Virus record (IMG/VR): IMGVR_UViG_3300045988_005753
Direction: 5' to 3' (one strand)
Origin: a virus
Taxonomy: Duplodnaviria > Heunggongvirae > Uroviricota > Caudoviricetes
DNA: 64,000 nucleotides
Shown here: piece by piece, positions 3,612-12,098 of the stretch
Layout: every line of letters starts with the position of its first letter
Position numbering within the stretch: the stretch's first letter is position 1
Notes under the pieces: generated by a model
Told to the model about the DNA's origin: nothing
Database searches by the model: none
What the model saw: only the letters and a program-made list of their open reading frames with translations
Made by a program: the position numbers and the translations under genes

Positions 3612-4185
3612 AAAAGGTCTAGTTAGAACCTTAGTGGATGTTATTGGTCACAGACTAGCTCGTGATAAAAATAATAGACCAAACGTAATTAGAGCTTACC
3701 CTTCTGATAACTCAAATGACAAAGGTTTAAAACCTGACCAGCCATTTATTACCGTATATTGTCAAGATGCTGCAACACCTTATGGTTGGGTTCTTGATAA
3801 GTTTGTTGAGGATGATGTAGTTTGCTACAGAATTGCTTTTCAGATTCCTGTACTAATTACGGTGAATGGTAAAGGTGCTCACAGCATCATGCTTGAGCTT
3901 AAACAACGATTAGAGATGAGTTCAGTCAGAGATTTAATTCTTGAAGAGACAGGAGCTACAGTTCTAGACACTGGAGCTATTCCAAATGACTACACTTATC
4001 TTAATACAGATTTCGAAAATTCTGCACCTCTTGTTGTAACTCTTGTAAAAAATTCGGTCCTGAAAGATGAACGTGGAAGTATTATCGAACGTGTTATTGT
4101 GGATGGTGAATTAGTTTACGAAGAAGGACAAGAGCCACCAGAATATACTATCCATCTAGATGTAGACTCCAAAGGGGTAAAATAA
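3586..4185 (+). CDS. hypothetical tail completion protein
   Basis: 199 aa ORF immediately upstream of the sheath gene. Confidence 0.4.
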   Translation: MQLETAELEKGLVRTLVDVIGHRLARDKNNRPNVIRAYPSDNSNDKGLKPDQPFITVYCQDAATPYGWVLDKFVEDDVVCYRIAFQIPVLITVNGKGAHSIMLELKQRLEMSSVRDLILEETGATVLDTGAIPNDYTYLNTDFENSAPLVVTLVKNSVLKDERGSIIERVIVDGELVYEEGQEPPEYTIHLDVDSKGVK

Positions 4186-5538
4186 ATGTGGAATCCAATT
4201 GTTAATGTAGATATTACATTGAACACCGCAGGAACTACAAGAGAAGGTTTTGGGCTGCCACTATTTTTAGCTTCAACAGATAATTTTGAAGAAAGAGTGC
4301 GTGGTTACACTTCCTTAACTGAAGTTGCTGAAGATTTCGATGAGAACTCTGCTGCATATAAAGCTGCTAAACAACTTTGGAGTCAGACTCCTAAAGTAAC
4401 TCAGCTTTATATTGGTAGACGTGCTATGCAGTATACTGTATCAATTCCTGATGAAGTTTCTGAAAGCACAGATTATTCTCTAACTGTAGCTGTTAGTGGT
4501 GGAGTTTCTCAGCCATTCCAGTACACTGCACAGTCAGAAGATACTGCTGAGAAAGTACTACAGCAGTTTAAAACACAGATTGAAGCAGAGCCTTCTGTTA
4601 AAGACCTTGTTACAGTTAATGTAACTGGTTCTGGCGGTTCAGCAACAATGGTAATTACCAAAGCTGGTGATAATGACTTCGTGAAGGTGACTTCTACAGC
4701 ACAAACAGTATCAATTGCAAGTACTACTGCTGACACAGCATCGACTGCTCTGGCAGCTATTGAAGCTTATTCAACTGACTGGTATTTCATTGCAGCAGAA
4801 GACAGAACTCAACAGTTTGTCTTAGCAATGGCTTCTGAGATTCAAGCTCGCAAGAAGATTTTCTTTACAGCTAACTCCGATGTAACAGCCCTACAAGGCA
4901 CAGAATTAGCTAGTGCAAACGATGTTCCAGCACAGCTTGCTAAGAGTCAGTACACTCGTACCGTTTGCTTGTGGCATCACACAGCAGCAGAAGACTATCC
5001 AGAAATGGCATACATCGCTTATGGTGCTCCGTATGATGCAGGTTCAATTGCTTGGGGTAATGCACAGTTAACTGGTGTAGCTGCTTCTCTACAGCCATCT
5101 AATCAGAGACCTCTGACAAGTATTCAGAAGTCAGCTTTAGATGCACGTCACTGTAACTTTATTGACCTTGATGGTGGTGTTCCAGTGGTTCGTAGAGGGA
5201 TTACTTCTGGTGGGGAATGGATTGATATCATCCGTGGTGTTGACTGGTTAGAATCAGACCTGAAAACTTCTCTGAGAGACTTGCTAATTAACCAGAAGGG
5301 TGGTAAGATTACTTATGATGATACTGGTATTACCCGTATTCGTCAAGTCATTGAAACCTCTCTGCAAAGAGCAGTCAACAGAAACTTCCTGTCATCTTAC
5401 ACAGTTAATGTTCCTAAAGCCTCTCAAGTTGCTTTGGCAGACAAGAAAGCTCGTATCCTGAAAGACGTTACCTTCTCAGGTATCTTAGCAGGGGCTATCT
5501 TGGATGTTGACTTGAAAGGTACAGTGGCTTACGAATAA
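4186..5538 (+). CDS. tail sheath protein
   Basis: 450 aa ORF followed by a tube-sized ORF, two chaperone ORFs and the tape measure gene, the canonical contractile-tail order. Confidence 0.55.
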   Translation: MWNPIVNVDITLNTAGTTREGFGLPLFLASTDNFEERVRGYTSLTEVAEDFDENSAAYKAAKQLWSQTPKVTQLYIGRRAMQYTVSIPDEVSESTDYSLTVAVSGGVSQPFQYTAQSEDTAEKVLQQFKTQIEAEPSVKDLVTVNVTGSGGSATMVITKAGDNDFVKVTSTAQTVSIASTTADTASTALAAIEAYSTDWYFIAAEDRTQQFVLAMASEIQARKKIFFTANSDVTALQGTELASANDVPAQLAKSQYTRTVCLWHHTAAEDYPEMAYIAYGAPYDAGSIAWGNAQLTGVAASLQPSNQRPLTSIQKSALDARHCNFIDLDGGVPVVRRGITSGGEWIDIIRGVDWLESDLKTSLRDLLINQKGGKITYDDTGITRIRQVIETSLQRAVNRNFLSSYTVNVPKASQVALADKKARILKDVTFSGILAGAILDVDLKGTVAYE

Positions 5539-5553
5539 TAGAGGTAAATTGGA

Positions 5554-6000
5554 ATGACTATGTATCAGCAATATTCCCCTAAAGACGTTGTGTGTAGCTG
5601 GAATGGTATTGCCATTGAAGGCTTTGCCCCAGACTCATTCTTACGTCTACAGAGAACATCACCACTTGTGACACCAGTTGTAGGTGCAGGTGGTCAAGTT
5701 GCTCTGACAAGAAATGCAGACAAGACAGGTACTATTGAGATTGAGCTAATGCAGACTTCTCTCTCTAACCAGATGCTTTCTGCAATTCAAGCTAAACAAG
5801 ACAATATGGAACTTGAAGAAGATATCTCTTCTAACTTCGTAATCTACGACCCATCAGGCTCTGTTCTGGCAACTGGTATTAATGCTTGGTTGCAGGAATT
5901 ACCGCAGATTGAACTTGGTCGTGACCAGAACTCTAAAACTTGGATTTTTGGTTGTGAGAAGCTAGACTACACTTCTACAATTCCAGCGTCAAGTGTTTAA
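5554..6000 (+). CDS. tail tube protein
   Basis: 148 aa ORF between the sheath gene and a strong terminator; position and size. Confidence 0.5.
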   Translation: MTMYQQYSPKDVVCSWNGIAIEGFAPDSFLRLQRTSPLVTPVVGAGGQVALTRNADKTGTIEIELMQTSLSNQMLSAIQAKQDNMELEEDISSNFVIYDPSGSVLATGINAWLQELPQIELGRDQNSKTWIFGCEKLDYTSTIPASSV

Positions 6001-6012
6001 TAAATCCTATAA

Positions 6013-6044
6013 GGGGGAGACTTTAAAAGGTCTTCCCCTTTTTT
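6013..6044 (+). terminator. rho-independent terminator after the sheath/tube genes
   Basis: GGGGGAGAC (6013-6021) pairs with GTCTTCCCC (6030-6038) with one G-U wobble, 8-nt loop, then a run of six T. Confidence 0.6.
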
Positions 6045-6073
6045 GTTTCTTTTAAAAGTATTAAGGAATCACA

Positions 6074-6472
6074 ATGAAAACAGAATCTAGAGTAATTAAT
6101 GGTAAGAAAGTAAATATTGTTCTGCTTGGGGCAAGAGATGGTATTAAGATGTCTATGAAGTTGGGTAAAATTGTTGTTCCAACCTTTGCACAGATGCTGT
6201 CAAGTCTGACTGATAAAGACAAGAAAGAAGCTCCAATGGTTCCATTTAAAGAACTTGTTGAAGCTTGTTTTGACAGAATTGAAGAAATTAACCTTGAAGA
6301 AATAGCTACATTACTATTTCAAGGGGCAACTGTCGATGACTTCCCACTTAATATTGATACGTACTTCCAAGCAAACTACGGTGAGTTTATTGATTACTTA
6401 GCATTTGCGCTGGAGGCAAACTTCGGAAGTTTTTTCGAAGCAAGCATTTTCAAAAGCCTAACTTCTCAGTAA
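6074..6472 (+). CDS. tail assembly chaperone (upstream ORF)
   Basis: 132 aa ORF immediately upstream of the tape measure gene; contains an in-frame slippery heptamer near its 3' end. Confidence 0.5.
   Translation: MKTESRVINGKKVNIVLLGARDGIKMSMKLGKIVVPTFAQMLSSLTDKDKKEAPMVPFKELVEACFDRIEEINLEEIATLLFQGATVDDFPLNIDTYFQANYGEFIDYLAFALEANFGSFFEASIFKSLTSQ
6430..6436 (+). other. candidate -1 programmed ribosomal frameshift site T_TTT_TTC
   Basis: X_XXY_YYZ heptamer in the zero frame of 6074..6472 (codons TTT at 6431 and TTC at 6434); the -1 frame is open from 6358 through ORF 6475..6714. Confidence 0.4.
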
Positions 6473-6474
6473 AC

Positions 6475-6713
6475 ATGGGTAACACTCTACAGACACCACT
6501 AACTGATGCTGCTGTAGAGGCAACCTATGAAGAAGCAGACGAGATGAAATTTGTGCTTGCTATTTATGGTATGGAAGGGTGTAAAGAAACACTTGACCAA
6601 CTCTTTGCTATGACATTCTCTGATTTATTATCATTGAGACAATTTCTTGAGATTCAGAGGTCGTATAAAGAGGAAATTGCTTACAACGAACTTAGAAGAG
6701 CAGGAAAAATGTA

Positions 6714-6714
<1 letters not shown>
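6475..6714 (+). CDS. tail assembly chaperone extension, probably expressed as a frameshift fusion
   Basis: 79 aa ORF in the -1 frame relative to 6074..6472; its TAA overlaps the ATG of the tape measure gene. Confidence 0.4.

Positions 6715-12098
<5,384 letters not shown>

Follow-up and report, generated by a model that had tools for sequence, protein, structure and literature searches.

Positions 6074-6714 of the DNA we have studied very probably code for a Felixounavirus tail assembly chaperone which is made as two products by a -1 slip, in the manner of the G and GT proteins of phage lambda. The window, as we call the whole stretch of 64,000 nt that was analysed, is part of the genome of a Felixounavirus (Felix-O1-like myovirus) with about 98% identity to sequenced E. 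coli phages. A DNA search with the 5 kb region 4000-9000 gave an identity of 97.9% with Escherichia phage vB_EcoM-Ro111lw, and there are 252 phage records in which a single match spans at least 80% of this region.

The mechanism we propose is as follows. Most ribosomes would read the first open reading frame (ORF1) to its stop codon in 6470-6472, giving a G-type chaperone of 132 aa. A minority would slip back one base while tRNA-Phe occupies UUU in the P site and UUC in the A site of the sequence U_UUU_UUC. Both tRNAs would pair again with UUU, and reading would resume in the -1 frame at CGA 6436 and end at the stop codon in 6712-6714, which would give a GT-type fusion of 213 aa. A GGAGG sequence 13 nt upstream may assist the slip by pairing with 16S rRNA. 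By analogy with lambda, the shared G part would coat the tape measure protein and the T part would recruit the tail tube protein; the tube and then the sheath would polymerise to the measured length. Neither chaperone product would be expected in the virion. A term search of the cryo-EM paper on Bas63 showed no chaperone among the virion proteins, which is consistent with its absence and is not a test of it. In the literature we searched we found no proof of the frameshift by peptide, western blot or reporter in Felix-O1-like phages; all that came up were remarks in genome announcements.

The tail module and its reading frames

The tail genes lie on the + strand in the order tube (5554-6000), chaperone (6074-6714) and tape measure (6714-8942), which is the gene order of the G/GT class. 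The tube gene, directly 5' of the chaperone gene, codes for 148 aa and is recognized by PF11681 (KPP10_Orf10 / Phage_Tube_PhiTE, E=3e-7) and by phrog_280. Further upstream we find the tail sheath gene (4186-5538, 450 aa; phrog_205, E=5e-125; Pfam DUF3383), also on the + strand; an equivalent sheath annotation is already present in phages wV8 and Meda. The tube and chaperone genes are separated by an intrinsic terminator-like hairpin in 6011-6046 of the + strand, formed by a 13-bp stem followed by the T-run TTTTTTGTTT; in wV8 and Meda it is annotated as a rho-independent terminator. A scan of 6000-6800 with Rfam gave only two matches, both below threshold and both on this terminator region. The tape measure gene codes for 742 aa (phrog_4036, E=0; Pfam TMP_3, E=2e-17), and its product is the presumed client of the chaperone.

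ORF1 (6074-6472, + strand) runs from ATG to TAA and codes for a G-type tail assembly (tape measure) chaperone of 132 aa and 14.8 kDa. Residues 9-124 match positions 1-124 of the 127 in the Pfam model PF21822 (Phage_TAC_15) with 73.2 bits and E=3.7e-20, the curated gathering threshold being 22 bits. ORF1 also matches phrog_1613 (E=2.7e-48), and PF21822 is present in all 94 homologues found. A structure predicted from the single ORF1 sequence had a mean pLDDT of 39.7 and was unusable.

The second frame (ORF2, 6475-6714, + strand) is a mechanical call of 79 aa from the ATG at 6475. It matches phrog_4963, a tail assembly chaperone, with E=2.8e-55, and its stop codon overlaps the ATG of the tape measure gene at 6714 (TAATG). 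The first-pass annotation had described two small ORFs before the tape measure gene in frames offset by -1, and this can be read directly from the sequence. It had also given the -1 frame as open from 6358 to 6714. The frame is indeed open through to 6714; however there are TGA stops in 6382-6384 and 6391-6393, and it becomes open no earlier than 6394, which is 12 codons upstream of the heptamer. This error does not affect the argument. The open -1 frame (6394-6714) overlaps ORF1 by 26 codons, an overlap of the kind that is characteristic of the G/GT class.

The part of the -1 frame which would be read after the slip, the T part, extends over 6436-6714 of the + strand, with 92 codons and the stop in 6712-6714. 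The match with phrog_4963 covers its last 79 aa, and homologous T parts are found in all relatives. The predicted fusion, join(6074..6436, 6436..6714) on the + strand, has 213 aa and 24.3 kDa. It joins 121 residues of ORF1, in agreement with the figure of about 120 given before, to 92 residues of the -1 frame. The predicted junction is ...ANFGSFF/RSKHFQKPNF..., and the GluC fragment predicted across it is ANFGSFFRSKHFQKPNFSVNMGNTLQTPLTDAAVE. A sequence search with the fusion gave no significant match with PDB chains or NCBIfam.

A different reading of the two frames is that they are separate genes with no recoding: ORF2 would be translated from ATG 6475 by termination and reinitiation, and the heptamer would be incidental. 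We judge this very unlikely. The ATG is found 3 nt beyond the ORF1 stop (6470-6472), as such coupling would have it, and in GenBank and RefSeq the majority of records for the genus do show two separate chaperone ORFs. However the 18 nt preceding ATG 6475 (CCTAACTTCTCAGTAAAC) contain no Shine-Dalgarno-like sequence, and the ATG itself sits within the 5' arm of a predicted hairpin in 6474-6529. ORF2 is probably no independent gene. Some amount of free T product may come from reinitiation at ATG 6475. The evidence from related phages given below also bears on this alternative.

The slippery heptamer

The sequence T_TTT_TTC is found in positions 6430-6436 of the + strand. The codons of ORF1 at this point are AGT (6428-6430), TTT (6431-6433) and TTC (6434-6436), so that the phasing is exactly X_XXY_YYZ; the first-pass annotation had placed the heptamer correctly in the zero frame. 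It lies 11 codons before the stop of ORF1 and inside the overlap, as it does in the G/GT class.

Heptamers of this type are not rare in the window, which is AT-rich. We have counted 72 in-frame X_XXY_YYZ heptamers in the 18,550 codons of the window, about one per 258 codons. Because they are so common, there is a chance of about 10% that a single one falls in the 26-codon overlap, a point in favour of the reading with two separate genes. Yet a long open -1 frame follows only one of the 72, the heptamer in 6430-6436, with 94 codons; the next best has 29. On the + strand of the 64 kb the sequence TTTTTTC itself has this one occurrence, where a first-order Markov model predicts 8.7 (P=0.0016). 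Taken alone these chance figures from within the window are suggestive; the comparative evidence is decisive.

Conservation of the site in related phages

In all the 59 sources compared (the window and 58 other loci) the homologous site carries the heptamer T_TTT_TT[C/A], with an open -1 frame of 82-107 codons after it. They come from Felixounavirus, Suspvirus, Mooglevirus, Kolesnikvirus, a Yersinia phage and metagenomic viral contigs. Five further loci also have the heptamer, which makes 64 out of 64 frameshift-type sources; these relatives do not count as independent of one another, and conserved motifs close to the site were the means by which most of them were found. Since the loci had been collected with peptide patterns beside the site, the search was repeated with N-terminal-only alignments. 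The same contigs appeared again, together with two new ones, both with the heptamer. Whole-protein homology gave four further lineages: three have AGT TTT TTC and a -1 extension of 94 codons, the fourth is found in Buttiauxella and is described in the next section. Bacterial genome contigs were scanned with two queries, the chaperone alignment and the Buttiauxella protein, and gave nothing.

The site is kept under very different conditions. Contigs with 57-65% GC and only 26-31% protein identity still use the AT-rich AGT TTT TTC. The residue preceding the heptamer may be Ser, Asp or Gly, and its codon ends in T regardless (AGT, GAT, GGT). In two lineages the heptamer is T_TTT_TTA: Phe-Phe is changed into Phe-Leu and the slipperiness is kept. 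The nucleotides of the heptamer are maintained to a much greater extent than the amino acids would demand. When we searched with the DNA of 6040-6760 (721 nt), the sole piece that could be aligned with the Erwinia Kolesnikvirus genomes was 6419-6459, which holds the heptamer and the bases around it.

Homopolymer runs are the classic sites of indels in sequencing and in replication, and one might think of a single gene broken by a one-base indel, either a sequencing error or a pseudogene. This has hardly any probability. The same T6 run with the same frame offset is found in about 300 independent phage records, and also in metagenomic contigs obtained with different technologies and from different lineages. 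The zero-frame tail of ORF1 (EASIFK...) is itself conserved and under selection. Such conservation among the sequences effectively refutes the idea of a broken gene.

Synonymous sites point in the same direction as the heptamer. In eight representatives of different Ounavirinae lineages, codon identity at synonymous positions rises from about 0.53 through the body of ORF1 to 0.86 over its last 12 codons, and no pair differs in codons 119-121 or 123-127. This freeze of synonymous sites in 6437-6469 is found upstream of ATG 6475, and therefore the -1 frame has to be read there, from the heptamer on. Two genes translated separately would leave it unexplained, unless the -1 frame is read. The peptide RSKHFQKP, which the -1 frame encodes upstream of ATG 6475, is conserved as well, a further point against a start at this ATG. 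Nor is the ATG a constant feature. Only Felixounavirus, Suspvirus and Mooglevirus have one near the start of the T part, and its position is not fixed; in Kolesnikvirus, the Yersinia phage and the distant lineages the first ATG of the T part is found 35-69 codons in, or there is none, whereas the heptamer is invariant.

The same fusion could also be obtained in another way: RNA polymerase might insert an extra U in the run of six (6430-6435), by transcriptional slippage, and the identical protein of 213 aa would follow. The insertion of one U gives the same sequence (S-F-F-R-S...), and the comparative evidence fits this mechanism equally. A weak terminator-like hairpin in 6410-6426, just before the T-run, could make the polymerase pause. 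We have also considered whether hairpin and T-run together (6410-6436) are a real terminator, and rejected it: there are only 6 pairs, G-T included, and chance alone would give 1.4 sites of this kind in the region scanned. The T6 run is short for transcriptional slippage, as the runs documented in bacteria have about 9 A or T (PMC5009743), and it stays below the A/T homopolymer of about 8-9 nt or longer which is taken to define a slippage site. A run of T7 or longer is found nowhere in the window and at the site in no lineage: in each of the 64 sources with the heptamer the run has six T, no more and no fewer, and the next base is C or A. Its phase is always X_XXY_YYZ in spite of the different preceding residues, while a polymerase mechanism needs no phase. 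In the homologous systems studied experimentally, lambda and P2, the mechanism is ribosomal frameshifting (PMC5009743). Transcriptional slippage is disfavoured because the run has six T, is never longer in relatives and always keeps the ribosomal phase; we consider it quite unlikely. As the protein is the same with either mechanism, a slip of the ribosome and a slip of the polymerase are inseparable by sequence alone.

A natural control in Buttiauxella

A prophage-like locus in a chromosome contig of Buttiauxella noackiae has a G homologue which is 47% identical to ours. It ends with ...GGC TCA TTC TTC AAA..., so that Ser-Phe-Phe is kept and the heptamer is absent. The next gene is an ordinary, unshifted ORF of 201 aa with its own ATG. 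Its protein is colinear with residues 15-208 of the fusion predicted for the window, across the junction (BLASTP, E=5e-13). The two loci have homologous genes, in both cases upstream of a TMP_3 tape measure gene. They differ in that there is no frameshift in Buttiauxella: the long form is provided with a separate start and with a G part of its own, which has diverged.

The presence of this unshifted protein of 201 aa means that the architecture in which G and T are fused is that of a real protein. It also shows the T part in use fused to a G part, against what two independent genes would require. To judge by its sequence, the slippery site has decayed where the fusion is encoded without recoding, and this is the only place where we have seen the heptamer lost, precisely where GT is a separate gene. 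Predictors of frameshifts can be checked against this locus as a clean evolutionary control.

The assignment to the G/GT-type chaperones, made in the first-pass annotation, is sustained by several features: the PF21822 domain, the position between tube and tape measure genes, the conservation of the heptamer, the lack in many relatives of a start codon for the T part, and the unshifted homologue.

Sequences which may stimulate the frameshift

It had been suggested that a stem-loop or pseudoknot might be found downstream of the heptamer, in 6437-6500. On folding it is absent: we found no 3' structure at the usual spacing, the segment folds with -3.4 kcal/mol (z=+1.19), and 179 out of 200 shuffled sequences fold at least equally well. 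The segments folded were 6437-6500, 6440-6480, 6437-6540 and 6400-6500. The consensus fold of seven representatives has -1.3 kcal/mol, with no covariation and no conserved structure. The stable stem-loop or pseudoknot 5-9 nt past the heptamer, which is typical of dnaX and of insertion sequences (IS), is not found here, nor is there any Rfam match. In 6437-6540 a better fold appears (z=-2.08), which corresponds to the hairpin in 6474-6529. We have rejected it as a stimulator: it begins 37 nt past the heptamer, and other genera do not conserve it.

On the 5' side the candidate is GGAGG, in 6412-6416 of the + strand, an internal Shine-Dalgarno-like sequence located 13 nt upstream of the heptamer. 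Shine-Dalgarno-like sequences stimulate -1 shifts with a spacing in the range of 9-14 nt (PMC5009743). GAGG or GGAGG is found with equal spacing in 21 out of 27 representatives, where it coincides with conserved Glu-Ala codons; GAG accounts for 37% of the Glu codons in the window. As a firm stimulator GGAGG had to be discarded: it is inseparable from the Glu-Ala codons, and Kolesnikvirus, the Yersinia phage and the loci L037 and L108 lack it. We propose a role for it only as a hypothesis, because GGAGG is the Glu-Ala of the peptide FALEANF and several lineages use GAA.

The sequence U_UU.U_UU.C has been tested as a -1 shifter in E. coli, and IS elements employ it; it belongs to the efficient class H_HH.U_UU.Y (PMC4066793). 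In an E. coli reporter U_UUU_UUC alone gave 0.12% frameshifting; addition of the IS911 stimulator raised this to 0.9%, and that of the IS3 pseudoknot to 7.6%. In the window the slip seems to depend on the heptamer with no RNA structure on its 3' side, and its efficiency is probably low, a few percent or less.

A more general possibility, which we put forward as doubtful, is that throughout Phage_TAC_15 the slip is driven from the 5' side and not by RNA structure on the 3' side: by GAGG or GGAGG 13 nt upstream, by the nascent peptide FALEANFxSFF, or by both. This peptide is nearly invariant in Phage_TAC_15 chaperones, and it would lie in the exit tunnel when the ribosome slips. If the idea is correct, it would account for the fact that no part of the protein is better conserved than the ten codons preceding the site, in phages from 38% to 65% GC. 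It would also explain how enough GT is obtained from a heptamer which yields 0.12% alone. As a site that lacks a 3' stimulator, it offers a simple system in which to ask what determines the efficiency of low-level frameshifting.

Comparison with known systems

The lambda heptamer is G_GGA_AAG and its G:GT ratio is 30:1. With lambda gpG/gpGT the proposed system has in common that a single gene directly 5' of the tape measure gene yields two products, through a -1 slip which is infrequent and takes place close to the end of the first ORF. The C-terminal domain of the long form comes from the -1 frame, and no strong 3' structure is needed. In lambda the G part binds the tape measure protein, the T part binds the tube protein, and both products are missing from virions (PMC5009743). 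Lambda differs in being a siphovirus, and there is no detectable sequence similarity, the protein of the window belonging to Phage_TAC_15.

Phage P2, with its gpE/gpE+E' pair, is similar in having a contractile tail, a chaperone pair between the tube and tape measure genes and a T-rich -1 heptamer. The latter is reportedly T_TTT_TTG, a sequence attributed to Christie et al. in 2002. The P2 chaperone belongs to another protein family. The efficiency of frameshifting in P2-like phages is 2- to 3-fold above that of lambda (PMC5009743).

In E. coli dnaX there is an internal Shine-Dalgarno-like element 9-14 nt 5' of the heptamer, to which the candidate GGAGG at 13 nt would correspond. The dnaX heptamer is A_AAA_AAG, it is followed by a 3' stem-loop and its efficiency is about 50%. 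The window differs from dnaX in this stem-loop, for which we have found no counterpart.

Annotation in Felix-O1-like phages

The closest comparisons are found among Felix-O1-like phages which have already been annotated. Meda, a Salmonella phage of the genus Felixounavirus (AXY86324.1 and AXY86325.1), has the same gene pair, the same AGT TTT TTC and the same junction, with 97% DNA identity in this region. Mordin, a Citrobacter phage of the genus Mooglevirus (YP_009177317.1), also shares the pair, the heptamer and the junction, with 81% DNA identity. Both records were deposited with a two-piece joined CDS for the chaperone. The fusions we derived by slipping at the heptamer are identical, letter for letter, to the deposited proteins AXY86324.1 of Meda and YP_009177317.1 of Mordin and Michonne, the latter also a Citrobacter phage of the genus Mooglevirus. 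Another Citrobacter phage, Moogle (Mooglevirus), has a deposited fusion of 212 aa, YP_009145710.1, in the same protein cluster. These annotated systems do not depart from the window in any important respect. The exact fusion of 213 aa predicted for the window is absent from the protein collection because of a few substitutions. The genome announcements of Moogle and Mijalis mention a tape measure chaperone with a translational frameshift (PMC4319497, PMC5543628). The joined annotations deposited for Meda, Mordin, Michonne and Moogle are predictions too.

The first-pass annotation had held that routine annotation would miss such a recoding event. This is so in most records of the genus, including the RefSeq record of wV8, where two ORFs are given. 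It does not apply to the curated genomes of Meda, Mordin, Michonne and Moogle, in which the two parts are joined. To judge from the sequences, the frameshift call is very likely right, and it had already been annotated and printed for Felix-O1-like phages. The G/GT frameshift has been textbook material since 1993-2004, and the class of frameshifted tail assembly chaperones of G/GT type is reportedly that of Xu, Hendrix and Duda (2004). As the frameshift is a textbook one and already recorded for Felix-O1-like phages, our result adds little to the field. For the window itself it means a correction: two CDS, 6074..6472 and join(6074..6436,6436..6714), should replace two independent small genes. 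The chaperone frameshift also confirms the reading of this region as a tail module. A by-product of the comparison is the presence of AGT TTT TTC across Phage_TAC_15 even in GC-rich phages, with T_TTT_TTA in two lineages and GAT or GGT as the first codon elsewhere.

Predicted hairpins around the frameshift site

Folding of positions 6437–6540, immediately after the slippery heptamer T_TTT_TTC (6430–6436), gives –24.5 kcal/mol (z=–2.08) in the window. The fold includes a predicted hairpin at 6474–6529, whose 5' arm holds the ATG of ORF2 (6475). It is not a classical stimulator, since it lies 37 nt from the heptamer and is too distant; Mooglevirus, Suspvirus and Kolesnikvirus do not conserve this hairpin. 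On the upstream side a scan detects a terminator-like layout at 6410–6436, a weak hairpin of six pairs with the T6 run directly 3' of it. This arrangement is probably due to chance, but it is the kind at which RNA polymerase could be made to pause on the slippery run.

A strong terminator-like hairpin, with a 13-bp stem and a T-run, is found at 6011–6046, between the tail tube and chaperone genes. As a predicted terminator it would leave the chaperone and tape measure transcripts lower than those of sheath and tube. The records of phages wV8 and Meda annotate this hairpin as a terminator.

Homopolymer runs in the window

Homopolymers are strongly depleted on the plus strand of the whole window: there are 10 T6 runs versus 48.7 expected and 35 A6 runs where 92.6 would be expected. 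T runs on this strand never exceed six. The sequence TTTTTTC appears once on the plus strand of the window, at the frameshift site itself, and 13 times on the minus strand.

The site in related sequences

GC-rich distant relatives (loci L047–L058, L066 and L068) keep AGT TTT TTC in different surroundings, as in L049:1900–1940. Their zero frame continues for 32–48 codons, and in several of them another heptamer in frame, A_AAT_TTC, precedes the site by four codons. In L049 a strong hairpin begins 3 nt past the heptamer; the 71-nt stretch folds with –34.3 kcal/mol (z=–1.84).

The chromosomal, prophage-like locus of Buttiauxella noackiae (GCA_000737905.1, JPRU01000001.1; L107:2501–3486) is the same chaperone system without frameshift. 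It has two ordinary genes, a short chaperone and a full-length GT-like protein of 201 aa, with TCA TTC TTC in place of the slippery heptamer.

In the Kolesnikvirus records of Salmonella phage SE5 (L008:889–1002) and Erwinia phage phiEa21-4 (L004:770–1005) the T part is either not annotated or entered as a hypothetical protein of 38 aa that begins at an internal ATG, because the frameshift was not recognised. Two other public entries look mislabelled or contaminated: MG065664.1, labelled Campylobacter phage A132, has 97% identity to this Felixounavirus region, and WP_252560994.1, filed as Staphylococcus hyicus, shares a 90%-identity cluster with the Felixounavirus chaperone.
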